Below, in pieces: positions 4,742 through 57,634 of a stretch of 64,000 nucleotides of DNA. How positions within the stretch are numbered: position 1 is the stretch's first letter; the number at the start of each line of letters is the position of its first letter. The notes beneath the pieces were generated by a model. The model was not told the origin of the DNA. It was given only the letters and a program-made list of their open reading frames with translations, and ran no database searches. Source of the stretch: an uncultured Desulfuromonadales bacterium (GTDB lineage: Bacteria; Desulfobacterota; Desulfuromonadia; Geobacterales; CAIOGM01); contig CAIYUY010000097.1 in NCBI GenBank assembly GCA_903929485.1, positions 3,088 to 67,087 on the forward strand, read 5' to 3'. The translations under genes and the position numbers were made by a program.

Positions 4742-6375
4742 CCAAGATACTCCTTGATCTGTTCAATGGGGAGGGGTTCGGCTCGGAGGAGTTCCGGCGG
4801 AAGGGCAATCCCCTGTCGCCGCAGGGAGGCTGCGCGTGCCAGCAGCGCGGCGCCGAAGAGGAGGTTAAGCGCCACCGTCGTCACCTTACGCTGCTCCGGT
4901 CCCTCCAGGAACGAACCGGCGCTCCACTCGTTAAAGGCGCCCATGGCCGGACCGCACCAGATCTGGTAATCCATCCGTCGGGAAGGTACTCCATCCTTGG
5001 CCCAGTGGGCTCCCTGCCCCAGATACCAGCGAAAGACGAGAGCCATCCGGTGACGGGGATCACGTTCTGCTCGTTCTACCTGACGCGGGTCCCGGCGGAG
5101 GAAATAGGCGCGGCTCTCCTGCCAGATCTGCTCCAAGGGAGCGAGAAAGAGGCTTTTTTCAAGTTTTTCCCGTTCCAGGGGGGGGAGTTCGTCCAAGCCG
5201 GAGCATGTGCGGTAAAGGTCATAAAGCTTGGCGGCGCGCATGGGAAACATGGTTCCCCTTTTCAGTACCTGCACCGTCACCCCCATCTCGAACATGTCGG
5301 CGGCCGGGGCCATGGTCACATCCGCCTGACGAGTAACGGCAAGCATCTCCCGAACCGCGGCGGAGGTTCCCGATTCCACGCAGGCCTGATGCACCGATCC
5401 CGCCATGATGTAGTCTGCTCCCATGGCAAAGGCGGCGGAAGCGGATGCCGGTGTCCCGATGCCGCCGGCCAGACCCACCCGGAGCTTGACCTCGTAGCCA
5501 TGGGCCGCCTGCATTCTGCCGGCAAGGGAGAGAATGGTGGGGAAAAGGGCCAGGGCAGGGCGGTTATCAGTGTGACCGCCGGAATCGGCCTCGGCGGTGA
5601 TCTCCTGGGCCATGGGAATCCGGGCTGCCATTCCTGCCTGCTGGACGGTTATGCTCCCCTCGGCCACCAGCGCCTTGAGAAATTTTTCCGGTGGGGGGGA
5701 GAAGAAGCGTTCGGCCAACTCCTCTCGGGAAACCTTGGCGATGATCCGGTTTGGGGTGACAATGACCCCATCTCCGTTTTCATGGATGCCGTGGAGCCGG
5801 TAGCGAACAAGAGACAGGGTCAGGGCGAGAAAGGCCGACGCCTCCACCAGACGGACCCCTTTCCGGATATAGAGCTCCACCAACGCCGTCTCCAACTCCG
5901 GCTCATGGGGGGAGTGGATAAGATTGACGCCGTAGGGGACTCCCGAGGTTGCGAGTATATCCAGCGCCGTCTCCACGCTTTCCAGGGGGAGACCTGCCGC
6001 GCCGAAGAAGCCGAGCATCCCCGCTGCTCCCAACTCCACCGCCATGGCGACGGAACTGATCCCCTTGGCCATGGAACCACCGAGGTAGGGATAACGAATC
6101 CCCAGTTCGGCGCAGAAACCGGGATCCCCCAGCTGTTCCGGGGTACAGGAGGAGGCATAACCCAGAAGAGGGTGAGAGTCACTGGGGGCGGCATCTCCGC
6201 ACAGGGACGCGTAGCCACCTGACACGGTGGTAGCTGTCCCGTTCTTTTCCACCACAAAAAGCGGCTCGCGGAGTCGGCGCAAAGAATCCACCATCCCCCG
6301 GTTCCGAAATGAATCTTCTGGAGAGGCGGGCCGCCACCAGCCATGGGCGCCCCCCTGCGGTTCAAACGGTGTCAA
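4738..6375 (-). CDS. pfaD: PfaD-family enoyl reductase (2-nitropropane dioxygenase-like) of a PUFA/polyketide synthase
   Basis: ORF 4738..6552. Typical PfaD features: GWW..SF N-terminus, LGIRYPYLGGSMAKGISS, GGIGTP, ADSGGHTD. I prefer TTG at 6375, preceded by GGAGGA 5 nt upstream, giving 545 aa; the frame stays open to 6552. Its stop overlaps the pfaA start (GTGA). Confidence 0.85.
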   Translation of the reverse strand: MTPFEPQGGAHGWWRPASPEDSFRNRGMVDSLRRLREPLFVVEKNGTATTVSGGYASLCGDAAPSDSHPLLGYASSCTPEQLGDPGFCAELGIRYPYLGGSMAKGISSVAMAVELGAAGMLGFFGAAGLPLESVETALDILATSGVPYGVNLIHSPHEPELETALVELYIRKGVRLVEASAFLALTLSLVRYRLHGIHENGDGVIVTPNRIIAKVSREELAERFFSPPPEKFLKALVAEGSITVQQAGMAARIPMAQEITAEADSGGHTDNRPALALFPTILSLAGRMQAAHGYEVKLRVGLAGGIGTPASASAAFAMGADYIMAGSVHQACVESGTSAAVREMLAVTRQADVTMAPAADMFEMGVTVQVLKRGTMFPMRAAKLYDLYRTCSGLDELPPLEREKLEKSLFLAPLEQIWQESRAYFLRRDPRQVERAERDPRHRMALVFRWYLGQGAHWAKDGVPSRRMDYQIWCGPAMGAFNEWSAGSFLEGPEQRKVTTVALNLLFGAALLARAASLRRQGIALPPELLRAEPLPIEQIKEYLG

Positions 6376-6593
6376 GCGGTCCTCCGGATAATCGTAAATA
6401 AAGTTGGAACAACCCCCTGGCTTGGTCGACGAAGGAGGAGCGGGCGGGATCAAGCGTGGCCACGGCAACCTGTTCCGATGAAATCGTAACTTCGAAAACT
6501 GTCCGGATAAAGGGTAGCCTGTATCTTTAACCGAAATCGAAGAATAACGCAACCGGCTTATGCCATGCCGCCATACTGATAGCTTGACACCGG

Positions 6594-44274: not shown

Positions 44275-44997
44275 TTACCTCCTCAGACTCCCCGGCGCAC
44301 AGCCGAACTTTCTTCGAAATGCATGGATGAAATGATTGACGTGGGAATAGCCCAGCTGCTGGGCCAGGAGTTTCAAGGGGATGGTCGTCTGCGAAATTGT
44401 GTCATGGGCCAGCTTGAAGCGATATTCCGTGATAAAATTCACCACCGTTTGGCCATATTCGGCGCAGAATTCAGCATTGAGGGTACGGACGGAGCAGCCG
44501 TACTGCGCCGCCAGTTCCTCCATGGTCGGCAATTTTCCCCTGGTATTGACCAGTAGTTCATAGATGGCGCGGGCGCGCTCCGTTGCCTTCAGCTGCCCCG
44601 GATCAAGGGGAAGCTGGGGGGAGTCCCCCGCCCAGGTGATGATCCGTCGGGATAGAGCGCTCACGGCCGCGGCCAGCTCTTCCAGAGAGGTGGGCTTGGT
44701 CAGATAGATATCCGCCCCGTTGTCATATCCTGATATTTTGTCCGTCAGCCCGTTGCGTGCGGTGACCATGATGATGCCGATTGCGGGGTGCATGCGGCGT
44801 AAGCGTCGGGCAAGGCTGATACCGTCTTCACCGGGGAGATTGAGATCGAGAATCAGCATATGGGGGATGGAGAGTTCAAGCTCGGCATTGAGAGCTTCCG
44901 CGCTGCCTATACCTCGAACCTTATGCCCCATCTCCGTCAGGGCGGACAGGGTTACTTCGCGTAGCGCCTCGTGGTCTTCAATTACCAGGATATTCAT
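44275..44997 (-). CDS. Response regulator, REC plus AraC-type HTH
   Basis: MNILVIEDH...LILDLNLPGEDG...TKP, then an AraC signature (GYS.VNHF..AFRRKFG..PG). ATGA overlap with the kinase stop. Confidence 0.88.
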   Translation of the reverse strand: MNILVIEDHEALREVTLSALTEMGHKVRGIGSAEALNAELELSIPHMLILDLNLPGEDGISLARRLRRMHPAIGIIMVTARNGLTDKISGYDNGADIYLTKPTSLEELAAAVSALSRRIITWAGDSPQLPLDPGQLKATERARAIYELLVNTRGKLPTMEELAAQYGCSVRTLNAEFCAEYGQTVVNFITEYRFKLAHDTISQTTIPLKLLAQQLGYSHVNHFIHAFRRKFGCAPGSLRR

Positions 44998-47243
44998 GAT
45001 GGCGTCCATAGTTCGAAAGTTATAGTTGTCTCGGTGGGTAGATAGCGTAGCTCCGCCTCCATGAGACGGGCGAGGTTGGCTGCAAGGTAAAGGCCAAGGC
45101 CCGAACCGGTGCTGCTGTGCGCTCCGGCGGACCGGTAGAATTTTTTGAAAATTCTTTTATCATCAGGTGATCCAGCCGAACCTATGCCATTGGTTACACC
45201 CACGGCAATGCCGGGCCGGCCGTGCCGCTGGCCAACCGAACTCTCGATGAGGATGTTTTCTTCAACAGAGCCGTATTTCAGGGCATTGTCGATCAGATTC
45301 GCCAGTATGATGCGCAGTATCTGCGGGTCGCCGTTGAGGACGGGAAGTTCGGCGCACCGGATGGTCAATCGTTGGGGCGCCGCACAGGCCGAGTGGAGAT
45401 CGGTAAGTAGTTCCTCCAACCGGACAGGTTCGTTGCTGCACGAAAAACGACCATGTTTGAGGAGGTCGACTTGAAGACAGCGGAGGATGATGGCATGCAT
45501 ATCCTCCACCGCGCGCCGGGCATGTTTCCTGACAGCGGGTTGCATTGCTTCCGAACCGAGGGCAAGGCGGAGGACGGAAAGCGGGGTCTTCAGTTCATGG
45601 CTGAGCATTGCCATAAAGCGGTCCTGCTCATCACGCCGGTAAGCTTCCCGGGTGAAAAGCATTGCCAGGAGAAGTGTCGAAACGATGATGGCGGAAGTGG
45701 TAAGCAACAGCCATCTCATCCGCTCCCCCACATCACGTTGCAGATCGTTATTGGAGAAGCCGACCACCATGACCAGGGGGAATGAACCCACCTTTTTGTA
45801 GACGAAGAGGCGACGGATGTTGTCGAATTGGCTGGTGTTTTCATAATGGCCGGATGAAGTCCTCTTCAACACCTCCCAGAGTGGCGAATCCACCGTTTCC
45901 GACCATTTACCTGCGGGAACCTGTGGCGCACGCGCCCTCAGTTTTCTATCCGTTATTCCCAAAAGCGAAGCAGAACTCTGTGCTCCCCCTGAAAGGTCTC
46001 GATAATAGCGGGCGAACGCTTCCGGGTTCACTGTCGCCAGCGCCAAGCCGCCGAAACTTCCGTCGGGGTTATTCATCCGGCGCGTGATCCGGAAGTGCAG
46101 CTTGCCGGTGACCCGGTCCGGTTCCACCGGAGAGATGAAGATCGTATCGGTGGTCGTGGCGCGATGGAACGTGAAATATTCACGGTCTGCGACGCTTTTG
46201 CCCAGGGTCGCCGGGTCGTGTGAGAGGACGATGTCGCCACCGGGCCCTATGAGATAGATAGTGTCGATAATCCCCCGTTCAATGCCCAGCGAGCGGATGA
46301 AGGATTCAGTCTCGGAAAGCGATCGCGTTCGCAGATAATAGCCACGCACCGAGCGCAAAAAAGCATCGACCTGATTGGTAACCAGGACCGTATGATCCAC
46401 AAACGCGTCATTGACCAGTTCGGCGGAGCGGATCAGCCGGGTTTTCTCCATCTCTCTGATATTCACGTAACCTACCCCCAGCATGCTGACGACGCAGACA
46501 ATGAGCACGGAAACGGCGCTCCAGAGCAGGAGCAGCTTGTTGCGAAACTGCTCGACGAATTCCGTAAGGTTGCGCGTTTTGCCGACGTCCTTGCCGTGAT
46601 CATCCTTGAGGCGGTCCACCTCCATCCACATGACGCAGATCGAGATGAGCGACATCATGACGATATATCCGAACACCGTCATCCAGGTCGTCGGGTTGGC
46701 GCCGCGCAGGGGGGGGGGAGGCGGAGCGCTGACGAGAAGCGCCACAAAGCGGAGCGCCATCCAGATGGTCAGTGTGCCGAACAGGAGCGCCATGGCTCTG
46801 GTAGGGATTCCGCACGTTCGCTTCAGGGCAGCGCGACAAAGTTGTAACGCCGTGCGACCGTGGAGAGCCACCGCGGCCAGAGAGAACAGCATGCTTCGAT
46901 AGATGCCGTTGGGTTCGATGAGGCCCCAGTAGCCGAAGGCAGGCAGGAGCAGCGCCAGTATACCCCATCCCAGCCAATCCGTGGTTGCCGTCCGTTCTTC
47001 GCAGTAGGCTGAAAAGCAGGAATAGAGGATTGGACCGGCCATGAGCAGCAGGTTGTTGGCAACGATGACTGTTTTCCAGGTGGGGAGTGGCGATGCGATT
47101 CCGGAGAGCGAGAAGCCGAGAGAGAGAACGAACACGGCCAGGGATGTGCTACGGACAAGGAGCGTGCCGGGGAGGAACCGAGCAAAGATGAGCAACACCA
47201 GGCAGAGACTCAGGCTCAGGCCGCCGGCGACAGTGTAAAACAT
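44994..47243 (-). CDS. Sensor histidine kinase with a multi-TM N-terminal region and a periplasmic Cache-like domain
   Basis: About 6 N-terminal TM helices, a Cache-like segment (IYLIGPGGDIV...REYF...), HisKA FMAMLSHELKTPL, and HATPase GSGLGLYL. Confidence 0.85.
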   Translation of the reverse strand: MFYTVAGGLSLSLCLVLLIFARFLPGTLLVRSTSLAVFVLSLGFSLSGIASPLPTWKTVIVANNLLLMAGPILYSCFSAYCEERTATTDWLGWGILALLLPAFGYWGLIEPNGIYRSMLFSLAAVALHGRTALQLCRAALKRTCGIPTRAMALLFGTLTIWMALRFVALLVSAPPPPPLRGANPTTWMTVFGYIVMMSLISICVMWMEVDRLKDDHGKDVGKTRNLTEFVEQFRNKLLLLWSAVSVLIVCVVSMLGVGYVNIREMEKTRLIRSAELVNDAFVDHTVLVTNQVDAFLRSVRGYYLRTRSLSETESFIRSLGIERGIIDTIYLIGPGGDIVLSHDPATLGKSVADREYFTFHRATTTDTIFISPVEPDRVTGKLHFRITRRMNNPDGSFGGLALATVNPEAFARYYRDLSGGAQSSASLLGITDRKLRARAPQVPAGKWSETVDSPLWEVLKRTSSGHYENTSQFDNIRRLFVYKKVGSFPLVMVVGFSNNDLQRDVGERMRWLLLTTSAIIVSTLLLAMLFTREAYRRDEQDRFMAMLSHELKTPLSVLRLALGSEAMQPAVRKHARRAVEDMHAIILRCLQVDLLKHGRFSCSNEPVRLEELLTDLHSACAAPQRLTIRCAELPVLNGDPQILRIILANLIDNALKYGSVEENILIESSVGQRHGRPGIAVGVTNGIGSAGSPDDKRIFKKFYRSAGAHSSTGSGLGLYLAANLARLMEAELRYLPTETTITFELWTPS

Positions 47244-47314
47244 CAGAGTGGCAGGGAAATCAAAAATGGCGGGATCTCCAAAAAGTTCTCTTCAGAGCCT
47301 TTGCGAGGAACGAA

Positions 47315-47698
47315 CTATCTCCGATACGGCTGAATAGTTTGTAGTTTGGGATGGGGTAGATAATGTTTCTGATTGAATGTATGAAGAGAAGAATTCGCTT
47401 CCACAGCTGTTTCTGCAATCAGCGCATCGATAATACCGATGCCTTGACTCAGATGGTGGGAAGAAAAAAATTTTAAAGCGTGATCGCATGCCTCATGTGA
47501 CGGCCATAACAGTCTCTATCCCTTGAGGGTCTTATTCAGAAGGTTTTGTTCGGTCTTGTTGCGGCATCCCTGCAACAGCTCCATAACAACCAGTCCCGGA
47601 ATGGCTATAGTTTTAGAAAAATTGGCGTCAAGCCAAGATAGAGCGCCAAGGTGGCCTCGCAGAATATCAACCATTATATCCGTATCGCAGACGATCAT
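47315..47698 (-). pseudogene. vapC: PIN-domain VapC toxin interrupted by one in-frame TAG (codon 61)
   Basis: The N-terminal part MIVCDTDIMVDIL..MELLQG ends at the TAG at 47518-47516. The same frame continues ..GIGIIDALIAETAVEANSSLHTFNQKHY..PYRR* to 47315. Total length is 127 codons. Confidence 0.75.
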
Positions 47699-47964
47699 GA
47701 GAGGTTTCGATTCTGGGCCTTATCACGCAGGGATCGGGCAAAGAGCGAACTATCACCCAAGTTGCGATCTTTCCAGATCCCAACGACAGATGATGCAGCC
47801 AGATCCGCAGCAGACGCCAGGAATGGCTGCACGGGAGTTCCTCGCCGAGAAGTGCGACGCGTCACATACTTGCCGACGAGAAAACGGTAAAAGTCATGGA
47901 GTTCCTGACGTGCAGACTCCGGAAGGATTGATGGATCAATAGTTGTTAGCCGAGCAGTTTTCAT
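47695..47964 (-). CDS. Putative antitoxin partner of vapC (family not confidently recognised)
   Basis: 89 aa, with an ATGA overlap onto the PIN gene start. The assignment rests on position. Confidence 0.55.
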   Translation of the reverse strand: MKTARLTTIDPSILPESARQELHDFYRFLVGKYVTRRTSRRGTPVQPFLASAADLAASSVVGIWKDRNLGDSSLFARSLRDKAQNRNLS

Positions 47965-48138: not shown

Positions 48139-48358
48139 GCGGGGGGAGGCCTGTCCTGAGCGAAGTCGAAGGGTTAGGAGGGGGAGGTAGAGGAGGCGCA
48201 AAAAGTCCTCTTCAGCGTCTTTGCGAGTGAAATAAAAATTGAGGACTTCCGTGAGCAGGAATAGTAGCGGAGTCTACCTTACTCCAGGAGACGGCGATTT
48301 AGCAACGGGGCTGCACAAACTCGTAGAAAAAAGGCGTAATTCCGTAGAAAAAACGAGG
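48139..48358 (+). repeat. Upstream block shared with 52910-53264 (cassette A copy)
   Basis: gcggggggaggcctgtc.tgagcgaagtcgaagggtt.ggagg... and ...gaggacttccg.gagca.gaatagtag.ggagtctac.ttactcc.gg.gacggcgattt.gcaacg.ggctgc.caa.ctcgtagaaaaaag.cgtaatt.cgtaga.aaaacg align between the two loci. Confidence 0.85.
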
Positions 48359-48397
48359 CCACAATTTATGCTACCTCTGTAGAATACCGTAAAGACT

Positions 48398-48470
48398 GTG
48401 AATGGTGAATAGTGAATGGTGAAAAGAACCTTGAACATAGAACAGGTTTGGACGTGAATGGTGAAAAGTG
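48398..48470. repeat. gtgaatggtgaa repeat cluster
   Basis: gtgaatggtgaatagtgaatggtgaaaag ... gtgaatggtgaaaagtg. The same word family occurs at 21084-21195 and 35747-35763. Confidence 0.75.
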
Positions 48471-48490
48471 CACGGCAACCGTAGGGGCGC

Positions 48491-48568
48491 GGCTTGCTGC
48501 GCCCGATGCTCTGGTCGTTGCTAATAACAAAACCGGGCGGACCAAGGCCCGCCCCTACGATGAGGGCG
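48491..48568. repeat. REP-like compound palindrome (gtaggggc family)
   Basis: gtaggggcgcggcttgctgcgccc ... gggcggaccaaggcccgcccctac. Confidence 0.7.
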
Positions 48569-48704
48569 CATAAACCGGTAGGTTGGCAGATGTACGAGGG
48601 AACATCGCCGATTCCGCTTCGCTTGAACCGGTCTGCTATGCAGAAAATTGTTCCCAATGAATGACACAACCACATTTACTAACGAGGAAAAGAAGGAGTC
48701 ACCT

Positions 48705-51206
48705 ATGAACAAATTAGTGTCATTGGTAGTTGTCGGACTGTTATTGTGTTGTTCAATGGGGAGCGCAAACGCGAAATCGATTCTCTATACTGATTGGGGC
48801 TCATATTTTAATATAGGTCACGGCGGAACAACAAATTTTGTCAAGGCTTTAAATGCTGCTTCTGAAAACAATCTGGTAAGCACTACAAACTTATCAAACT
48901 ACACTCTGATGAATCAGTACGACGCATTAATGGTTGATGCGAGGAGTCCGGGATTATTATCTTCGACTGAAATAGCAAATATTAAAACGTATAAAGCAAC
49001 AGGAAGAAAAGTCCTCTTAATCGGTGATGCGTTCGGATTTATTGCAAATTTTAATAATCAACTGATGGGTATTGTCGGTGGCACACATGACGGAGATGAT
49101 TATACAGGTGGTGCAACAAAGGTCATCGACAATGTGTTAACCAAAGGTGTGGATACCATTTGGTTGCAGTTTGTTGGTCGTGTGACCGGGGGAACGCCGC
49201 TGTTCAGTGTAAAATTCGCGTCCTTGTGGGGCGCGAATGTCTTGACGTCGTTTGACGTTAACGTATTTGACGATCAATACGGGAATAAACAGTTCCAGAC
49301 AAATGTGGCCCAATGGCTTGCCGACTCCAGGCTTCCGGTATATATGGATACCACGGGGAATAGCCGCCAAACATCTCCCGGCCTCGTAACTCAACAGGTT
49401 GCATTGGTATTCAAAACAGGAGCCAACGGGCCGTTCACCATCGGCGCTCTCAAAGTGGGCTTGTATCTCTCAAATTCAATCGGCAGCGGCTCCTTTACGG
49501 TTAGCCTGCGTGCGGTGGACGGCTCGAACAATCCCAGCGGCGCCGATCTGGCTTCGGTGGTCGTGAATACCGGCGCCTTATCTCAAGGAAGCACCGTGAA
49601 GGAGGTCACGTCTCTTGGGGATTTGGAGAGCTATAGTCTGGAAGCTAACACCAACTACGCCTTGGTCGTAAGTAACGGGACTCCCGGCATAGCTGTTTCT
49701 ATCGGTAGCGGCACACCGTACCTTGATCCAACCTACGGGTTTTCCTTGGTGATTCCCTCCCTGCTGACAACCGACAACGGTGGCTCCTGGGTTCCCGCGT
49801 TTGGACCAAACGCCTTGATGATGTCCATCGGCCCCTCCACTAAACCCACGTCCGCCACAGCGCTCTCCGCCGCCCCCAATCCGGTCACGGTGGGAAGCTC
49901 CGTAACCTTCACCGCCAGGGTCACCCCTGTCGCGGCCACGGGTACGGTCACATTCAAGGAGGGGAGCACGACGCTTGGCGCCGGTGCCCTTTCCGGTGGG
50001 ATCGCCACACACGATACCACCTCGCTGACCGCAGGAGTGCACAGTATTACCGCCGTTTACGGAGGTGACGGCAGCTATCAGGGCTCTACCTCCAGCGTCT
50101 ATACCCAGACTATCAACAAGGCGAACAGTTCCATTACCCTGGTTTCCGGTCTTAATCCGTCTAACTCCGGCCAGAGTGTCACCTTCACCGCGACAGTTTC
50201 CCCGGCTGGGATCACCGGCGGTACGGTTACCTTCTACGACGGCACCACCGCCTTGGGAGTCGGGGCTCTGGTAAGCGGTACGGCCAGCTACAGTATCAGC
50301 TCCCTGAGCGGGGGGAGTCATGGCATCACTGCCGTCTATAGCGGCAACAGCAGTTACAATGGTTCCACCTCGGCGGCCCTTACTCAGACGGTAAACACGG
50401 TTGTCACCGTCGGAACCTCATCCGAGGGGCGGAGCTTCTCCGTTGACGGTACCACGTACACCTCCACCCAGACCTTTGTCATGTCGGCGGGGAGTAGCCA
50501 TACCCTGGCCGTAACTTCACCCCAGACAGGGGCGGCAGGAAGTAGATACTCATTTACCTCCTGGTCCGACAGCGGCGCACAGAGTCATAGTATCACTGTT
50601 CCAAGCTCGAACACCACCTACACCGCCGCCTTCGGCGCTCAGTATCAACTGACCACGGTGGTGAATCCATCGGTGAGCGGTTTTGTCCTGCCTATTACCG
50701 GAAGCTGGTACGGTGCGGGGAGCAGGGTGAACGTCTCCGTCACCCCCAATACGGGGAGCGCCTTTAGTTCATGGACCGGTCCGGTGGCCAATCCTAACAG
50801 CGCCGCCACTACTGTCACGATGACTGGCCCGCTTAGTGTCACCGCCAACCTGTCCGGCATTCCGGCGCTTACCTCCAAAGTAACCGGCAAGAGCGGGACT
50901 ATCGACAACCGTCTCTGGACCGTCACCCTGACCAACAGCGGCGCCGGAGCGGCCACCAACGTCAACATCACCGGCCTGATCATTACTCCGGGAACCGGCG
51001 TTACCTGCACACCCACGGTGAAGAGCAGCTTCCCGGTACCGGTGTCCGATGTGGCGCTTGGTGCGCCCCAAAGCGGAGTCGTCACCCTTGACTTCACCGG
51101 TTGCGCCGCCACCAACAAGTTCAATGTCCGTGTTGACTACGGCTATGGCGATTCCGGCGGCGGCTCTTACAGCAGGAGTGACAGTTTTTATAACATGATG
51201 AGGTAA
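48705..51206 (+). CDS. Large secreted multi-domain protein A: unknown head, 2 Ig-like repeats, and a conserved C-terminal module
   Basis: Signal peptide MNKLVSLVVVGLLLCCSMGSANA with an aagaaggag RBS. Ig-like repeats of the form VTFTA.V.P....G.VTF.DG...LG...L..G.A......L..G.H.ITAVY.G...Y.GS. InlB-B-repeat-like F.SW.GPVAN.NS..TTVTMTGP.SVTANL. The last about 270 aa are paralogous to 55227-56014. Confidence 0.85.
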   Translation: MNKLVSLVVVGLLLCCSMGSANAKSILYTDWGSYFNIGHGGTTNFVKALNAASENNLVSTTNLSNYTLMNQYDALMVDARSPGLLSSTEIANIKTYKATGRKVLLIGDAFGFIANFNNQLMGIVGGTHDGDDYTGGATKVIDNVLTKGVDTIWLQFVGRVTGGTPLFSVKFASLWGANVLTSFDVNVFDDQYGNKQFQTNVAQWLADSRLPVYMDTTGNSRQTSPGLVTQQVALVFKTGANGPFTIGALKVGLYLSNSIGSGSFTVSLRAVDGSNNPSGADLASVVVNTGALSQGSTVKEVTSLGDLESYSLEANTNYALVVSNGTPGIAVSIGSGTPYLDPTYGFSLVIPSLLTTDNGGSWVPAFGPNALMMSIGPSTKPTSATALSAAPNPVTVGSSVTFTARVTPVAATGTVTFKEGSTTLGAGALSGGIATHDTTSLTAGVHSITAVYGGDGSYQGSTSSVYTQTINKANSSITLVSGLNPSNSGQSVTFTATVSPAGITGGTVTFYDGTTALGVGALVSGTASYSISSLSGGSHGITAVYSGNSSYNGSTSAALTQTVNTVVTVGTSSEGRSFSVDGTTYTSTQTFVMSAGSSHTLAVTSPQTGAAGSRYSFTSWSDSGAQSHSITVPSSNTTYTAAFGAQYQLTTVVNPSVSGFVLPITGSWYGAGSRVNVSVTPNTGSAFSSWTGPVANPNSAATTVTMTGPLSVTANLSGIPALTSKVTGKSGTIDNRLWTVTLTNSGAGAATNVNITGLIITPGTGVTCTPTVKSSFPVPVSDVALGAPQSGVVTLDFTGCAATNKFNVRVDYGYGDSGGGSYSRSDSFYNMMR

Positions 51207-51210
51207 TTCC

Positions 51211-51238
51211 GTAGGGGCATGGCGCGCCGTGCCCCTAC
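51211..51238 (+). promoter_or_regulatory. Intercistronic GC-rich palindrome 5 nt after the stop of protein A
   Basis: gtaggggcatggcg / cgccgtgcccctac. Confidence 0.6.
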
Positions 51239-51271
51239 AACATAACCAATATCACACAAGGAGATAGAATC

Positions 51272-51835
51272 ATGTTCAAACGAATCATCACGACCCTGGC
51301 CCTCACCACCCTTCTGGGGGCGACCGGAGTTCAGGCGTCAATTCTGGACGTCACCTCCAAGGATCTGGCCGGGACGCCGGGGAGCCGCGTGGGGTGGAGC
51401 TTTTCTCTCAATAATGACACACCCTTTGACCTTTATGTCCTGCGGGTCTACGCCGACGGCACGCTTTTTGGCGCCGACGGGGACAGCGCCCTGGGAACTT
51501 TCCGGGATGAGATCGCCTACACCACCGGTAATGATGGCATCGTGGTGGCTGCCGGTGATACTTATACCGGCAGCTTCCCCGCCAACGGCCTGGCCAGCTT
51601 CGCCATCAACAGCGGGGCGCCCTATCTGGCGTCGGTGAGCGGGAAGATTTACCTGGATTACGAACTGTATGACGTTAATGTGGACTTTCAGGGGGCGGGG
51701 GTGTTGACGGCCCAGTATCGGGGAGGGGATGCACTGGCCTCGGTGACCGCCGTTCCCGAACCATCCACGTACCTTCTTGTTTGTCTTGGAGTGGGGGGGC
51801 TGGCTCTGCTTCGGCGGCGGCAACGAAACCAATAG
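51272..51835 (+). CDS. Small PEP-CTERM-anchored protein A (187 aa)
   Basis: Signal peptide MFKRIITTLALTTLLGATGVQA. The C-terminus VPEPSTYLLVCLGVGGLALLRRRQRNQ has the PEP, TM helix and Arg cluster of an exosortase sorting signal. aaggag RBS. Confidence 0.88.
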   Translation: MFKRIITTLALTTLLGATGVQASILDVTSKDLAGTPGSRVGWSFSLNNDTPFDLYVLRVYADGTLFGADGDSALGTFRDEIAYTTGNDGIVVAAGDTYTGSFPANGLASFAINSGAPYLASVSGKIYLDYELYDVNVDFQGAGVLTAQYRGGDALASVTAVPEPSTYLLVCLGVGGLALLRRRQRNQ

Positions 51836-51941
51836 TTCGGGAAAAGCAGGGTGATTCTCGATAATAAACATACTACGATTCTGAATCCGGTTTTGTGGGG
51901 GCACCCCCGGCGCCTTCCCGCCGGGAAGGGTATTTTTTATG

Positions 51942-52243
51942 TCACCGTGCCAACCGGAGCGAGATATCCATCTTCTCGTGGAGAACCCGGATTATTTCCG
52001 GGCGCCCATCTTCAAGCCAACGAAAAACAATCAAGTGGCGGCTGATTTTATACGTCAGGCAACCCAGCTCAATACAGGATAAGTCACGGTTGCGGGTTTC
52101 GCGCCGGGTTATTTTTTCAAAGCAGGCAAAGAGACGTTCAGGTAAATAGCTTCCTGCTCTTTACTCCAACTCTTTTTGGTGTAGTGAGCCATCTCACGCA
52201 GGTCATGCAGCGCCGATTTCTTTATCTTGAACGGCAAACTCAC
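51942..52243 (-). pseudogene. parE: ParE-family toxin with a 1-nt frameshift near 52136
   Basis: Frame 1 reads VSLPFKIKKSALHDLREMAHYTKKSWSKEQEAIYLN and stops at 52111-52109. Frame 2 reads RLFACFEKITRRETRNRDLSCIELGCLTYKISRHLIVFRWLEDGRPEIIRVLHEKMD..*. Total length is 302 nt. Confidence 0.75.
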
Positions 52244-52485
52244 GGCAGGGGAGGTTCGTCTTCAATCCCCGCTATGAAATCTTCATAGGAACATTCCACC
52301 GACTCACTCTCCATTCCCAGGGCAATGGCCCGCTTGAGAGCCATTGCTTTCGCCTGATGCTCTTCCAGCAGCGTCAGTCCGGCGCGAATAACTTCGCTGC
52401 GAGAACAGAACCCAAAGTCACTGACTTGTGAGTCGACAAACGCCTCAAAATGAGGTCCCAACGTGACGCTGGCATTTCTGGACAT
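52240..52485 (-). CDS. parD: ParD-type (RHH) antitoxin
   Basis: MSRNASVTLGPHFEAFVDSQV.......SEVIRAGL.LLEE. GTGA overlap with the parE start. Confidence 0.8.
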   Translation of the reverse strand: MSRNASVTLGPHFEAFVDSQVSDFGFCSRSEVIRAGLTLLEEHQAKAMALKRAIALGMESESVECSYEDFIAGIEDEPPLP

Positions 52486-52687
52486 ACCTGCCTCCCCCCC
52501 GATGAGTAATACTTTGTAGTATAGATTGCCCCGATCGGATAGGCAAGCGGGGGTTTTTATCCCCGCCACAATAATTCAGATTGAATCTCAGCATTGTCCG
52601 GTTTGGTTTTTGCAGGTGGATTATAAGTCCCCCCGCCCCTCGCGGGTGACCATCGCACACACTTAACTCCGTGGGTGATATCGGCTA

Positions 52688-52888
52688 CACGGGATTGTCC
52701 TGGCCCCCCAAGACACAACGACTCTCACTTATGGCGCTCATCCGGCGACTCTGGGGCTGGGGCCGATCAACAACATCGCCAACCGCTCCATGGGGCTGAT
52801 GCTCCACGATACCCTGGCGTTTACTCCTGACGGGACCCCTTTGGGGATTCTGGATGCGCAGTGTTGGGCGCGAGACCCACGGCGTTAA
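52688..52888 (+). mobile_element. Internal 66-codon fragment of an IS4-family (Tn5-like DDE) transposase
   Basis: Reads HGIVLAPQDTTTLTYGAHPATLGLGPINNIANRSMGLMLHDTLAFTPDGTPLGILDAQCWARDP. This matches the region around the first catalytic Asp. No ends and no remainder of the gene are present. Confidence 0.65.
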
Positions 52889-52909
52889 GCGTGGGTAAAG
52901 ATCACCCCA

Positions 52910-53264
52910 GCGGGGGGAGGCCTGTCTTGAGCGAAGTCGAAGGGTTGGGAGGGGGGAGGCAGAGGAGGCGCAAATAAGTTCTCTTCAGAGTCTTTGCGAG
53001 GAACGAAGTGACGAAGATCTGCCTTTATTTTGCCAGCTGTCAGTTTTGAGATTGCTTCGCTTGCTTCGGCTACCCTTCGACTTTGCTCAGGGACCACGCG
53101 CAGCACAAGTCGCTCGCAATGACAGCATTTGCGAGTGTCTTTAGAATGGAGGACTTCCGGGAGCAAGAATAGTAGAGGAGTCTACTTTACTCCGGGTGAC
53201 GGCGATTTGGCAACGAGGCTGCGCAACCTCGTAGAAAAAAGTCGTAATTTCGTAGAGAAAACGG
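52910..53264 (+). repeat. Upstream block shared with 48139-48358 (cassette B copy), carrying a 135-bp nested insertion at 53001-53135
   Basis: Collinear with the A copy apart from the segment between two tttgcgag octamers (52993-53000 and 53128-53135). Confidence 0.8.
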
Positions 53265-53404
53265 TTCCAAATGCTGTGGTAACTATGTAAAATATGTTTC
53301 CATTGTTACCATGGAGTCATATTCATCAAAAGTCGTCGGCCATGCACCGGGTTTATGGTGCGTACCAACAACCTCATGCAGATCAACACTCCACGGAGGG
53401 CATC

Positions 53405-56014
53405 ATGAAGGGACTATCAAGGATCATCCCGGTTGGTTTACTGCTGATGGCGTTGTTTTCCGGTTCGGCGGGAGCCGCATCGTATTCGGGAGGCTCCGGA
53501 ACATCCGGCGATCCTTACCTGATCGCCGATCTGGTCGACCTGCAAGCGTTGCAGAGCGATAGCCAAACAACTACCTTCACCGGGAAATATTTCAAGCAGA
53601 CCGCCACTATCAACCTGAGCGCGATAGCGAATTGGGGAGGAATCGGTAATAATACCGGTTCCGAGCCGATGTTTGCGGGAAAGTACGATGGTGGCGGGTT
53701 TTCGGTCTCGAATATGACAATCAGTGAAGCAGGAGCCAGTGACAACCGTAAATGTGCAGGGCTTTTCAACTCCTTGGGGGCAGGCGCCGTGGTGAAGAAT
53801 TTGGCTGTGACGAGCGCTTCGGTAACCGCAAAAGGTGATGCGGCCAATCATGGCGTGCTGGCAGGTTATGCGACTTCGAGCACCATTACCAACAGCTACA
53901 CCACCGGCACCGTAACAACGACAACCGATACGGGCGGTGGCGATGGCGTGGGAGGTTTGGTCGGCTATGCAAATCGTTCAACGATAAGCTTTAGTTATTC
54001 GCTGGTCAGCGTAACCGGCACCCGCGTCGTTGGCGGACTGGTTGGAGTCAATTTTGGGGTGATCACTAACAGTTTCATGGCAGGCGCCGTAAGCGGTGGT
54101 TCGTTCAGGGGGATACTGGTCGGTGATCTGAGCACATATTCGGCAGTCAGTTATGTGCCTTATTCCGGGACAGGCGCAGCAAGGGCCAACGGTGCGGGCT
54201 CAGTCACCCCCGCGAAATTGAACAACAGCCCTTTAGTGGCTGCGGGTCTGTTCAAGGATTCAGCCAATTTTCTGACCACGGCAAGCCCCGCCTATTTTTC
54301 CCTGGATTGGGATTTTGTCAGAGTCTGGCAAATAAATCCGGCGGTCAATAACGGCTATCCGATCCTTCGGGCGCCAATCGGAGCGCCTGTCGCCCCCACC
54401 GCGATCACCACTGCCGCCACCACTATCACGGCTACCGGAGCGACCCTGAACGGCCAGGTCAACGACAACGGCGCCGCCACCACGGTTACCTTTGACTACG
54501 GTCTGACCACCGCCTATGGCGCCACTGTCGCGGCCACCACCAACGGCACGGTCAATGCGGAGTCAGGTTACAGCGCCGTCGCCAGGACCCTTACCGGCTT
54601 GACCTGCAATACCTCCTACCATTTCCGGGTTAACGGGGTTAACAGCGCCGGGACAACCAACGGCAGAGACGCTACCTTCTCCACCTCAGTCTGCCCCGCC
54701 CAGACCATCACCCTGGATCGGGCCGCCCCGGCCGGCGCCGTTTTCAATAGCAACTTCGATGTCAAGGCCCACGCCGGTTCCGGGCTTGACGTGACCGTCA
54801 CCACCGGCGGCGCCTGCTCGGGGAGCGGCCGCAGCAGCGGCAATCCGGGGAGTCCGGTCACCATCACCATGATCAGCGGCGCCGGCGACTGCACGGTCCA
54901 CTTTGATCAGGCCGGTAACAGCAGTTACAGCCCAGCCCCGCAGGTTAACAACACGACTACGGCGAGCAAGGGCTCCCAGAGCATCGTGGTCACCACCTCG
55001 GCTCCGGCTTTCGCGGCCTACGGCGCCACCTTCACCGTGGCGGCCTACGCCACCTCGGCCCTCCCCGTGACCTACAGCAGCGGCAGCCCCACGGTCTGTA
55101 CCAATGCGGGCGCCGACTTCACCATGATCGGCAGTATCGGCCCCTGCAAGGTCCAGTATGACGTTGCCGGCACCGCCAACTTCAACCCGGCCCCGCGGGT
55201 GGTGGAGAACAGTGCGGTCAGCGCCGTCAGTGTCACGATCCGGACAAGTCCGGACGGCCGTGCCTTCACGGTGGACGGCACGTATTACACCACGGCGCAG
55301 ACCTTTACCTGGACGCCGGTGAGCAGCCACACCATTGCGACCACGACGCCCCAGGTCGGGACTGCCGGCGTCCGCAACCCCTTCAGTTCCTGGTCCGACA
55401 GCAGGGCCATGAGCCATCTCATCACCGCCCCGGCCACGGGGAGCGCCACCTACACCGCAACTTTCGGCACTGAATACCAACTGACCACGACGGTAACCCC
55501 GGCGGCCAACGGCTATGTCCTGCCTCTCTCCGGGAACTGGTATGCTGCGGGGAGCATAGTCGTCGTCTCCGTCACCCCCAACACCGGGAACGCCTTCAGT
55601 TCCTGGAGCGGACCGGTGGCCAACGCGAACAGTTCCGCCACTACCGTCACCATGACCGGCCCGATCAGTGTCACCGCTAACCTCTCCGGCATCCCGGCAT
55701 TATCCACCAAGGTCACCGGCAAGAGCGGTGTCATCGACAACCGCCTCTGGACCATTACCCTGACCAACAGCGGCACCGGCACGGCCGGCAACGTGCGGGT
55801 TACCGGTTTCACCGTCACCTCCACAAGTTGCACCCCTGTCGTAAAGGGGAGCTTTCCCGTGCCGGTAGCCGATGTGGCGCCGGGCGCGCCCCAAACCGCG
55901 AACATGACCATTGACTTCACCGGTTGCGCCGCCACTGCCAAGTTCAACGTCCGGTTCGATTACAGTTACGGACCGTACACCGGCAGCGACAGCTTTTACA
56001 ACGTGATGCGGTAA
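53405..56014 (+). CDS. Large secreted multi-domain protein B: GLUG-motif head, FN3-like domain, 2 Cys-pair repeats, and a conserved C-terminal module
   Basis: Signal peptide MKGLSRIIPVGLLLMALFSGSAGA with a ggaggg RBS. GLUG-type repeats (GLF, GVLAGY, GGLVGY, GGLVGV). FN3-like segment ATLNGQVNDNGAATTVTFDYG.T.AYG. The C-terminal about 270 aa are paralogous to protein A. Confidence 0.85.
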   Translation: MKGLSRIIPVGLLLMALFSGSAGAASYSGGSGTSGDPYLIADLVDLQALQSDSQTTTFTGKYFKQTATINLSAIANWGGIGNNTGSEPMFAGKYDGGGFSVSNMTISEAGASDNRKCAGLFNSLGAGAVVKNLAVTSASVTAKGDAANHGVLAGYATSSTITNSYTTGTVTTTTDTGGGDGVGGLVGYANRSTISFSYSLVSVTGTRVVGGLVGVNFGVITNSFMAGAVSGGSFRGILVGDLSTYSAVSYVPYSGTGAARANGAGSVTPAKLNNSPLVAAGLFKDSANFLTTASPAYFSLDWDFVRVWQINPAVNNGYPILRAPIGAPVAPTAITTAATTITATGATLNGQVNDNGAATTVTFDYGLTTAYGATVAATTNGTVNAESGYSAVARTLTGLTCNTSYHFRVNGVNSAGTTNGRDATFSTSVCPAQTITLDRAAPAGAVFNSNFDVKAHAGSGLDVTVTTGGACSGSGRSSGNPGSPVTITMISGAGDCTVHFDQAGNSSYSPAPQVNNTTTASKGSQSIVVTTSAPAFAAYGATFTVAAYATSALPVTYSSGSPTVCTNAGADFTMIGSIGPCKVQYDVAGTANFNPAPRVVENSAVSAVSVTIRTSPDGRAFTVDGTYYTTAQTFTWTPVSSHTIATTTPQVGTAGVRNPFSSWSDSRAMSHLITAPATGSATYTATFGTEYQLTTTVTPAANGYVLPLSGNWYAAGSIVVVSVTPNTGNAFSSWSGPVANANSSATTVTMTGPISVTANLSGIPALSTKVTGKSGVIDNRLWTITLTNSGTGTAGNVRVTGFTVTSTSCTPVVKGSFPVPVADVAPGAPQTANMTIDFTGCAATAKFNVRFDYSYGPYTGSDSFYNVMR

Positions 56015-56021
56015 TACCGCT

Positions 56022-56043
56022 GGGGCACGGCGCGCCGTGCCCC
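56022..56043 (+). promoter_or_regulatory. Intercistronic GC-rich palindrome 8 nt after the stop of protein B
   Basis: ggggcacggcg / cgccgtgcccc, perfect. Confidence 0.6.
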
Positions 56044-56164
56044 TTACTCAATTGGTCGAACCATGGTTATTGCCGGCCGGACAAGCCCGAACCAAACAGG
56101 ACGCGGATAAACGCCGATGAACGCGGATCTGAAACATATAAACCTGACCGAAGGAGTCAAATCT

Positions 56165-56728
56165 ATGTTCAAACGAATCATCACCACCCTGGCCCTCACC
56201 CTCCTCCTGGGTGTAACAGCAGCCCAGGCGATGTCACTGAATGTCATCACCAAGGATCTGGCGGGGACGCCGGGGAGCCGCGTGGGGTGGAGCTTTTCTC
56301 TCAATAATGACACCCCCTTTGACCTTTATGTCCTGCGGGTCTACGCCGACGGCACGCTTTTTGGCGCCGACGGGAAGAGCGCCCTGGGAAACTTCCGGGA
56401 TGAGATCGCCTACACCTCCGGCAATAACGGCATCGTTGTGGAGTCGGGGGAGACCTACAACGGCAGTTTCCCCGTGGACGGCCTGGCCAGCTTCGCCATC
56501 AACAGCGGCGCTCCCTACCTGGCGTCGGTGACCGGGAAGATGTATCTGGATTACGAACTGTATGACGTTAATGTGGACTTTCAGGGGGCGGGGGTGTTGA
56601 CGGCCCAGTATCGGGGAGAGGAAGCTTTGGCTTCGGTGACCGCCGTTCCCGAACCCTCCACCTACGCTCTTGTCGGTCTCGGTCTGGGCGGCATGGCCCT
56701 GCTCCGCCGGCGGCAGCGGGACCAATGA
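56165..56728 (+). CDS. Small PEP-CTERM-anchored protein B (187 aa)
   Basis: Near-identical to 51272..51835. C-terminus VPEPSTYALVGLGLGGMALLRRRQRDQ. gaaggag RBS. Confidence 0.88.
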   Translation: MFKRIITTLALTLLLGVTAAQAMSLNVITKDLAGTPGSRVGWSFSLNNDTPFDLYVLRVYADGTLFGADGKSALGNFRDEIAYTSGNNGIVVESGETYNGSFPVDGLASFAINSGAPYLASVTGKMYLDYELYDVNVDFQGAGVLTAQYRGEEALASVTAVPEPSTYALVGLGLGGMALLRRRQRDQ

Positions 56729-56903: not shown

Positions 56904-57236
56904 ATGTCCAGATACGGAAGAGAAGAAATAATGTCCTCCAGTGAGGTCGTCAGGAACTTCGGGTCTGTCCTGAACAGTGTTTCTCAACATACTCGTGAAA
57001 AAGTCGCCATTGTTCGTAATAACAAACTGGAAGCTGTACTGCTTCCCGTGGATGTTTATGAGCAGATGGAACGTGTTTGCGAAATGGTAAAGAATGGTCA
57101 TGGTCTGTCGGGTGGTGTGGGAAACAGTGGCGCATTGCTGGAATTTCTTCGCACAAATCGACTGTCTGCCGCGGCCCGCATGTCGCCGAAAGAGATTGAG
57201 CAGCAAATTCTTGAAGAGCGGGAGGCATGGGAATGA
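56904..57236 (+). CDS. Phd/YefM-type antitoxin
   Basis: SSSEVVRNFGSVLNSV....EKVAIVRNNKLEAVLLPVDVYEQM. Confidence 0.75.
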   Translation: MSRYGREEIMSSSEVVRNFGSVLNSVSQHTREKVAIVRNNKLEAVLLPVDVYEQMERVCEMVKNGHGLSGGVGNSGALLEFLRTNRLSAAARMSPKEIEQQILEEREAWE

Positions 57237-57634
57237 TTCGCAAGGTTTATCTTGATTCCTGTATCGCGATCTATCTCGTCGAGGAGCATCCTCTGTATTG
57301 TGCGGGCATTGAAGAATCCTTGGCAAAATTGCAAGGTATTGTCTGCTATAGCCCTCTCACCGAACTGGAATGCCTTGTTCTGCCGCTTCGTGATAAGCGT
57401 GATGACCTTCTGGAGAAATTCAGACAGTTCTTCGGGATCAATGTCCCGCTGACCATGCCCGACGTGGTGTATCGGGAAGCGGCGAAATTAAGAGCGGAAT
57501 TCGGATTGAAAACACCGGACGCACTGCATCTGGCTACAGCGCGATTTCATGATTGTTCAGAGTTGTGGACCAACGATGATCGTTTGGCGGGTGTTGCGGA
57601 GGGTAGGGACTTAAACTTGGTTCGGCGGGGGTGA
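57233..57634 (+). CDS. vapC: PIN-domain VapC toxin (apparently intact)
   Basis: YLDSCIAIYL, E.L......, TPDALHLATA and NDDRL acidic or conserved positions. ATGA overlap with the antitoxin stop; an alternative ATG is at 57227. Confidence 0.8.
   Translation: MIRKVYLDSCIAIYLVEEHPLYCAGIEESLAKLQGIVCYSPLTELECLVLPLRDKRDDLLEKFRQFFGINVPLTMPDVVYREAAKLRAEFGLKTPDALHLATARFHDCSELWTNDDRLAGVAEGRDLNLVRRG

Follow-up and report, generated by a model that had tools for sequence, protein, structure and literature searches.

Why should a bacterium carry, twice within a few kilobases, a large secreted protein without a recognisable anchor directly followed by a small protein that has one? This question is raised by a locus in contig CAIYUY010000097.1 (assembly GCA_903929485.1, positions 3,088 to 67,087) of an uncultured Desulfuromonadales bacterium; the whole stretch of 64,000 nt that was analysed is called the window below. 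Two paralogous two-gene units lie about 4.8 kb apart in this window, as found from a list of open reading frames (ORFs) and a direct-repeat search. Each unit consists of a shared upstream block, a gene for a large signal-peptide protein (cargo A or B), a GC-rich palindrome and a gene for a 187-aa PEP-CTERM protein (small partner a or b), an arrangement that had been described in an initial annotation and was recovered here part by part. The comparisons reported below established that the units belong to a conserved, cross-phylum two-gene cassette, in which a variable cargo ending in an Ig-like domain is followed by a small PEP-CTERM beta-sandwich protein. The cassette is widespread in Geobacteraceae, Acidobacteriota and some other two-membrane bacteria.

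The pairing was examined from both sides. From the side of the small protein, the metagenome contexts of five relatives (L001, L004, L006, L007 and L009) were inspected. In L001 and L007 (71% and 52% identity to a, respectively) the protein encoded upstream carried the C-terminal module shared by A and B, in the first case as a 725-aa Big_3_5 protein and in the second as a 1061-aa Peptidase_S8 plus Big_5 protein. The 219-aa upstream protein of L004 (60% identity) shared only the last 14 residues (GTYTGSDSFYNMLR), L006 (57% identity) was preceded by a 412-aa protein without the module and L009 (31% identity) was an orphan with no upstream partner. The DNA homology of L004 to the other loci starts about 45 nt before the stop codon, which could reflect either a recombination breakpoint or selection retaining the tail.

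A genome scan with the small-protein alignment as query and one genome per species gave 34 loci, located in Geobacteraceae, Methylococcaceae, Thiodictyon, many Acidobacteriota and one Baltobacteraceae genome. Geobacter, Acidobacteriota and Methylococcaceae are classic carriers of exosortases. The six-frame ORFs of these loci were searched with our own hidden Markov models (HMMs) of the last ~113 aa of the cargo ('term'), of its InlB-repeat part ('flg') and of the small protein. The standard terminal domain ended the same-strand ORF directly upstream in 21/34 loci, and another six had a terminal domain that was divergent yet clearly akin to it and ended in ...AEAVIP. One locus had retained the 14-aa tail alone, in three the pair was reversed or arrayed (L026, L037 and L040) and three were partnerless (L011, L020 and L025, with an opposite-strand remnant in L025). 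The gap between the large and the small gene was 17-150 nt where measured. The predicted conservation of the pairing thus holds in related as well as distant genomes, with a standard or variant terminal domain directly upstream of the small gene in 27 of the 34 loci, and the pair is present in at least three phyla (Desulfobacterota, Pseudomonadota and Acidobacteriota) and in addition in one Baltobacteraceae genome. Given that the 'flg' part was detected in just 6/34 loci, the partner-linked element is the last ~110 aa and not the whole 270-aa module. The initial annotation had tied the entire C-terminal module to the partner; this stood for the terminal Ig-like domain and did not for the InlB-B-repeat part, which occurs in a minority of pairs. 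An exception to the pairing rule is seen in a Geobacter metagenome-assembled genome (L006 5220-7930, the same locus as L011), where the small gene is preceded by two more PEP-CTERM genes, one of which scores just under the choice-of-anchor R cut-off, and by the gene for the 412-aa protein.

The reverse analysis, in which homologues of the module were found independently of the small protein and the contexts of seven such proteins were inspected, showed that in all seven the gene is directly followed by a small gene of exosortase type or by what remains of one. In four of these (L044/45, L049, L051 and L052) the downstream gene belonged to the small-protein family, with a frameshift in L049; in L051 and L052 the gene caller had either overlooked it or called it wrongly. 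In L050 (4088-6806) a Tn3-family transposase has inserted right after the terminal-domain gene, and the small gene survives as no more than an N-terminal remnant. In L047 and L048 the next gene encodes a different protein of ~225 aa with a PEP-CTERM or PEPxxWA-type tail, that of L047 (5268-5942) being PEPxxWA-like with 24.6 bits at a cut-off of 35. The cargo ORF in L044/45, where the terminal domain had its only close relatives in the metagenomes (a narrow alignment was used and three loci were returned), is at least 1451 aa long and runs off the locus start before the small gene follows.

The terminal domain was always located at the extreme C-terminus, and the heads preceding it were unrelated to each other. 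Peptidase_S8 heads were found in L007 and L015, and in Acidobacteriaceae locus L019 (7549-9960) a GH10 xylanase with two CBM4_9 domains precedes the terminal domain, with the small PEP-CTERM gene next to it. Other cargo domains were Big_3_5, lamin-tail (LTD), PKD, Sortilin/BNR-like repeats and DUF7619, and NHL repeats were seen by eye in the sequence of P0276. That the heads are exchangeable, as suggested from the window, is borne out by the occurrence of Big_3_5, S8 protease, GH10 xylanase, LTD, PKD and NHL before the same terminal domain. Unrelated heads joined to a constant C-terminus are the hallmark of a module for handling or targeting.

The two parts also diverged together. Pairwise distances between terminal domains were correlated with those between small-protein cores (r = 0.81 over 27 pairs; 0/5000 permutations gave a value as high), and nearest neighbours were concordant for most of the 27 pairs. 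In genome MFD00008.bin.2.153, the standard-type pair L038 groups with L030, and the variant-type pairs L031 and L033 group with L042 and with L034 from Baltobacteraceae; the L034 pair in turn clusters with Bryobacterales pairs. This sorting by pair type indicated that the two parts move and diverge together, whichever genome hosts them. Such co-divergence would be expected for interacting parts and supports docking without proving it.

Within the window, cargos A and B could be aligned only over their last 268 aa (BLASTP, 66% identity, E = 6e-109) and the remainder was at noise level, in agreement with the earlier observation that the two proteins share only about 270 C-terminal residues and have unrelated N-terminal heads. 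Cargo A is composed of a Sec signal peptide (MNKLVSLVVVGLLLCCSMGSANA), a 360-aa head without any Pfam match even at E = 10, two Big_3_5 repeats (132 bits in Pfam) and the shared module, corresponding to the unknown domain plus Ig-like repeats assigned to it previously. In cargo B a signal peptide (MKGLSRIIPVGLLLMALFSGSAGA) is followed by a Gly-rich GLUG-like head, an fn3-like region, Cys-containing repeats and the shared module. Among the domain labels originally proposed, Big_3_5 and Flg_new_2 (PF18998) were confirmed, the latter with 33.6 bits in A and 39.5 bits in B (cut-off 23.6) and with 226 and 224 bits, respectively, in our 'flg' HMM, whereas GLUG (16.1 bits, cut-off 20.5) and fn3 (18.3 bits, cut-off 25) in B were below threshold and are leads only. 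No sorting-signal match was obtained for A or B in Pfam or NCBIfam, no NCBIfam model matched them at all and PF07589 was absent from the 120 module homologues listed; the cargos are thus anchorless as far as these models can recognise, as had been noted.

The direct repeats between the two copies (offsets 4771-4908 nt) cover the upstream block, the C-terminal module, the intergenic region and the small gene, and the small proteins a and b are 85% identical. A stretch of 125 nt (51356-51480 versus 56249-56373, gene positions 85-209) contains only 2 differences between genes a and b, whereas outside it they differ at 74/439 positions, which suggests local gene conversion between the small-gene paralogues. 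The near-identity reported earlier for about 120 nt of this stretch was correct in extent (119/121 identical), but the offset is 4893 and the matching segment is therefore 56253-56373 and not 56256-56376. The near-identical stretch, together with the repeats and toxin-antitoxin remnants flanking the copies, might be taken to mean that the locus is a recent local duplication of no special significance, generated by recombination between repeats. Such a reading is already contradicted by the cross-genome conservation of the pairing, with dozens of unrelated genomes having it in single copy; furthermore, the ORFs are intact in both copies and the heads differ completely, which a plain duplication would not give, and we consider this explanation hardly credible. 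The coordinates of the two units and their parts are listed in Table 1.

Table 1. Features of the two cargo-partner units in the window.
Feature	Position	Strand	Basis or remark
Shared upstream block, copy A	48139-48386	+	direct repeats, pairwise alignment
Large cargo gene A	48705-51206	+	833-aa ORF
Two InlB-B-repeat-like (Flg_new_2) domains, copy A	50403-50849	+	first part of the 268-aa module
Terminal ~113-aa Ig-like domain, copy A	50850-51203	+	tail SDSFYNMMR; 'term' HMM 157 bits, alignment, AlphaFold2
GC-rich palindrome between A and a	51214-51235	+	GGGGCAYGGCGCGCCGTGCCCC
Small partner gene a	51272-51835	+	187-aa ORF
Shared upstream block, copy B	52910-53294	+	direct repeats; 138-nt insertion relative to A
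Large cargo gene B	53405-56014	+	869-aa ORF
Two InlB-B-repeat-like (Flg_new_2) domains, copy B	55232-55681	+	Pfam, BLASTP, own HMM
Terminal Ig-like domain, copy B	55682-56011	+	tail SDSFYNVMR; 'term' HMM 152 bits
GC-rich perfect palindrome between B and b	56022-56043	+	GGGGCAYGGCGCGCCGTGCCCC
Small partner gene b	56165-56728	+	187-aa ORF

Both small proteins passed the two PEP-CTERM models, PF07589 (cut-off 20.7 bits) with 29.2 bits for a and 30.0 bits for b and TIGR02595 (cut-off 16 bits) with 29.2 and 31.5 bits, respectively, and their designation as PEP-CTERM proteins is therefore correct. Protein a is made up of a signal peptide, read directly from the sequence (MFKRIITTLALTTLLGATGVQA, followed by S), a beta-sandwich core of ~135 aa (VGWSFSLNND) and a PEP-CTERM tail with VPEPSTY, a transmembrane helix and RRRQR. 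The AlphaFold2 model (mean predicted local distance difference test score, pLDDT, 87.8) has an N-terminal helix, a low-confidence linker, the beta-sandwich and the PEP-CTERM helix. Its neighbours among PDB structures (Foldseek) were weak and comprised cohesins from dockerin complexes, MSP/VAP and PapD-like/pilin folds, all of them beta-sandwiches that bind proteins or peptides. The top match was cohesin 6kg8 (E = 6.5e-5, TM-score 0.34 when normalised by query length and 0.39 by target length), followed by the cohesins 5nrm and 4uyp; these are weak matches with root-mean-square deviations of 7-12 Å, and the MSP and PapD-like folds scored equally. An exhaustive profile search identified 1428 representatives of the small-protein family (clusters at 50% identity) at E <= 1e-3 and 433 at E <= 1e-10, where a word-indexed search had given just 22 close clusters, and nearly all members were stand-alone proteins of 180-210 aa. 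Two small-core relatives have tails of other types: P0018 ends in a VPEID-CTERM-like tail (21.8 bits, cut-off 33) and P0281 has a DUF11-like domain and, judged by eye, an IPTL-type tail.

Membership in the floc_PepA family (NF033554), the best-scoring named family for the small proteins, was rejected, with scores of 31.4 bits for a and 44.7 bits for b at a cut-off of 80. This sub-threshold similarity nevertheless bears on a different view of the pair, namely that the small protein is a PepA-like component of the exopolysaccharide matrix or floc and the large one a soluble adhesin or enzyme, their adjacency reflecting co-regulation and no docking. PepA-type PEP-CTERM proteins act on bound exopolysaccharide and in floc formation (PMC9850573), and the unrelated PEP-CTERM core that follows the same terminal domain in L047 and L048 would also fit. 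Co-regulation alone, however, leaves unexplained why a ~110-aa domain is kept at the extreme C-terminus of unrelated cargos, it accounts poorly for the co-divergence and for the sorting by pair type within a single genome, and typical PEP-CTERM genes form single-gene operons (PMC1569441). We therefore regard two independently acting proteins as unlikely.

The AlphaFold2 model of the terminal domain (pLDDT 93.6) is a seven-stranded beta-sandwich, the last strand of which is the conserved tail. Two Cys residues, C53 and C85 in domain numbering, were invariant in the alignment and suggest a disulfide bond, which would be in keeping with a location outside the cytoplasm. Neither the terminal domain nor the small-protein core belongs to a curated Pfam or NCBIfam family, and profile searches gave no sequence homologue among PDB chains for either the domain or the small protein. 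A DUF11/CARDB-like assignment (PF01345) of the terminal domain was rejected at 15.0 bits (cut-off 24.6), the resemblance being restricted to the fold and an 'LTNSGxGxA' motif. Models of the C-terminal domain (CTD) of type IX secretion systems (T9SS; TIGR04183 and PF18962) matched neither A nor B (E <= 0.1) nor the isolated terminal domain. A Lys in a 'GKSG/KTG' motif was present in 16/19 aligned sequences of the terminal domain. By analogy with sortase-built pili, this residue could be imagined as a nucleophile that receives the cleaved small-protein C-terminus from an exosortase, with the pair becoming covalently joined. The Lys and the acyl intermediate that exosortase is thought to use (PMC1569441) are circumstantial support for such chemistry, for which the data offer no need; protein-to-protein transfer by exosortases is without known precedent and the Lys is not invariant, which makes covalent joining very improbable.

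Taken together, the two units may be tandem paralogues of an operon that encodes a cargo and its dedicated exosortase-sorted anchor, with the small protein tethering or carrying the cargo, a reading for which we see the balance as even. Both proteins would cross the inner membrane via Sec, with translation of the small protein starting from a ribosome-binding site of its own, 17-150 nt downstream of the cargo gene. The PEP-CTERM helix would hold the small protein until cleavage by exosortase, after which it would be passed to the cell surface or the exopolysaccharide layer. Its beta-sandwich would bind the terminal Ig-like domain of the cargo, probably via the last beta-hairpin and tail, and the anchorless cargo would thereby be carried along and/or tethered at the surface, with one matched anchor per cargo. 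We infer the binding and anchoring steps indirectly, from the co-divergence and from the small protein's fold, which weakly resembles cohesin, MSP and PapD-like binding domains; exosortase dependence in the source genome and localisation at the surface are likewise put forward as parts of a model.

In its most specific form, which we propose tentatively, the terminal Ig-like domain and the small beta-sandwich would be an unrecognised matched docking pair, a functional counterpart of cohesin-dockerin in two-membrane bacteria. It is possible, although we would not press the point, that exosortase systems export or display anchorless enzymes and adhesins through such docking, with heads swapped by recombination and with covalent joining as a rarer sub-case. 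The same pairing and co-divergence would equally serve an export adaptor, in which the small protein, once bound to the terminal domain in the periplasm, ferries the cargo through the outer-membrane step, whereupon the cargo is released. Heads directed at insoluble or extracellular substrates (GH10 with CBM4_9, S8 protease) would suit release, and the cargos have no recognisable secretion tag of their own in Pfam or NCBIfam. Sequence data cannot separate a carrier from an anchor, but one-to-one stoichiometry would be costly for a mere carrier and no outer-membrane component was conserved beside the pairs in the loci inspected, so that we find release after transport quite unlikely.

Several observations weigh against a dedicated, docking anchor. 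The fold matches of the small protein are weak (E = 6.5e-5 to 1e-3, TM-score 0.3-0.5) and the terminal domain had no PDB structural match below E = 1e-3. Co-divergence is equally expected for adjacent genes that are inherited or transferred together. The L047 and L048 partners showed no core relationship to the small family in profile-profile comparison and have only the sorting signal in common with it, which means that the terminal domain is not bound to one partner fold. A recognisable partner is absent for the family members L009, L011, L020 and L025. No natural fusion of terminal domain and small protein was found among the top 150 family representatives; what these contained was a read-through array in P0276, a double core in tandem in P0177 and cores with anchors of other kinds. 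A Pfam scan covering most ORFs of at least 150 aa revealed no exosortase in the 64-kb window; Geobacter species are known to carry EpsH/exosortase genes (PMC1569441). Nor does a separate anchor have an evident advantage over a PEP-CTERM signal fused directly to the cargo.

The arrangement of expression signals was examined in the window and the relative loci. Both large genes have a Shine-Dalgarno site (AAGGAG 7 nt before the ATG of gene A, the 833-aa length of which was also obtained with an independent gene caller) and a typical Sec signal peptide, and GAAGGAG lies upstream of the ATG of gene b at 56165. The small genes sit 65-150 nt behind the large genes in the window, and a terminator-like hairpin with a T-run is present at 51913-51929, downstream of gene a. 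The short gaps, the separate Shine-Dalgarno sites and this terminator-like site fit co-transcription of the pair. The intergenic palindrome GGGGCAYGGCGCGCCGTGCCCC occurs in the window only at 51214 and 56022, with 0 matches in 100 shuffles. The predicted RNA fold of the A-a intergenic region has an energy of -24.3 kcal/mol, and the hairpin has no T-run and was not flagged as a terminator. It is common to the close relatives L001 and L044 only and absent from L004, L007 and Acidobacteriota, where the gap is 17-35 nt, and was therefore rejected as a general feature of the cassette; it may serve to adjust the two cistrons' ratio or stability.

The upstream block of copy A contains a 46-nt element (48139-48184), a 35-nt repeat (48200-48234) and a 167-nt block (48220-48386). 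A weak, degenerate sigma-54-like site (TTAGCAACGGGGCTGC) was seen in block A at 48299-48314 and a sigma-54-like -24/-12 site with correct GG-N10-GC spacing (TTGGCAACGAGGCTGC) in block B at 53207-53222, the GG dinucleotide being present in copy B only. Given that the generic sigma-54 pattern was not enriched in the window, these sites are leads only. They are confined to the blocks upstream of the large genes, with none directly before the small genes; the Haft motif-1/motif-2 spacing was not seen in the upstream block when the alignment was read by eye, and the proteobacterial PEP-CTERM pattern of a single-gene operon behind a sigma-54 promoter did not apply. The 46-nt element is G-rich with the core GAGCGAAGTCGAAGGG and precedes both large genes (48139-48184 and 52910-52955), with a partial inverted copy at 53073-53088 (minus strand) within the 138-nt insertion of copy B. 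The 35-nt repeat occurs three times (47280-47314, 48200-48234 and 52973-53007). Neither was found in any relative locus retrieved, and they may be a small mobile or REP-like (repetitive extragenic palindromic) element that mediated the duplication. No Rfam RNA family was detected in the window.

The genes around the pairs are regulators, toxin-antitoxin modules and housekeeping genes. In the window, copy A is flanked by a toxin-antitoxin gene for a DUF2281 protein (47695-47964, minus strand), a ParD gene with a 44-aa truncated ParE-like remnant lies at 52109-52569 (minus strand) and Phd plus a PIN/VapC toxin at 56904-57634 (plus strand). A response regulator (receiver plus AraC-type helix-turn-helix, HTH) and a dCache histidine kinase are encoded divergently upstream (44275-47243, minus strand). 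AraC-type HTH genes adjoin the pair also in L011 (11861-12220), L012 (4448-4762) and L048 (1705-2013); the four loci are from different lineages, with 43-46% identity over the HTH, and the AraC-type protein may be a dedicated regulator of the pair. At the other end of the window, a stop-free frame of 1587 aa (2-4762, minus strand) runs off the window start and has a ketosynthase-like N-terminus and three to four tandem acyl carrier protein (ACP) domains (LGIDSIKRVEILS), visible as a 282-nt tandem repeat at 370-1488. It is preceded by a FabD-like ORF (4738-6552, minus strand) and looks like a PfaA-type polyunsaturated fatty acid or polyketide synthase.

To our knowledge, the roles of exosortase-sorted proteins and the attachment of anchorless extracellular enzymes to two-membrane cells are poorly understood. 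A conserved cargo-plus-anchor cassette, if true, would provide a concrete model for surface retention of such enzymes and a role for many small PEP-CTERM proteins of no assigned function, and it would aid in predicting the attachment of acidobacterial glycoside hydrolases and proteases to their cells. It could also furnish surface-display work with a compact, modular pair. In relatives of Geobacter, the cassette points to locally regulated surface adhesins that can be exchanged.

Exosortase sorting and its PEP-CTERM signal are themselves known. Neither Pfam, NCBIfam, PDB nor the literature searched covers the dedicated pairing of cargo and partner, the terminal domain or the small-protein core, and no description of the pairing was found in that literature, in line with the initial annotation, which knew of no such system. 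As in the PEP-CTERM/exosortase (EpsH, XrtA) system (PMC1569441), the small protein has a signal peptide and a tripartite signal of PEP motif, transmembrane helix and basic cluster, but here the signal is carried by a small dedicated partner and not by the functional protein, and the small gene is second in an operon, whereas more than 65% of PEP-CTERM genes form single-gene operons (PMC1569441). PepA (NF033554; PMC9850573) is likewise a small secreted PEP-CTERM protein, weakly similar over the C-terminal two thirds; it differs in being encoded by a stand-alone RpoN-dependent gene without upstream cargo, and the scores obtained here are far under the family cut-off. With the T9SS CTD of Bacteroidota the cassette shares diverse secreted proteins with a common C-terminal beta-sandwich of ~100 aa that sets their surface fate, but no CTD model matched, the host phyla are others and each cargo has an adjacent small partner gene, which is lacking for T9SS cargos. 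Chaperone-usher and sortase pili resemble the pair in that a large adhesin-like protein stands beside a small Ig-like subunit, and PapD-like and pilin folds were among the weak structural neighbours; the small protein is, however, predicted to be a complete fold by itself, and no usher, chaperone or pilin-type sortase gene was found near the pairs in the window and the inspected loci. The closest parallel in design is with cohesin-dockerin systems, in which variable heads are likewise joined to a constant C-terminal module. A separate anchored beta-sandwich is proposed as the binder here, the best, albeit weak, PDB neighbours of the small protein are cohesins and one cargo is a GH10 xylanase with carbohydrate-binding modules. 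The cargo module is, on the other hand, predicted to be an all-beta, Ig-like domain and not a Ca-binding dockerin, with no dockerin match in Pfam for A or B; there is one binding domain for one cargo and no scaffoldin, and anchoring in these two-membrane hosts would proceed through exosortase and not through S-layer homology domains or sortase.

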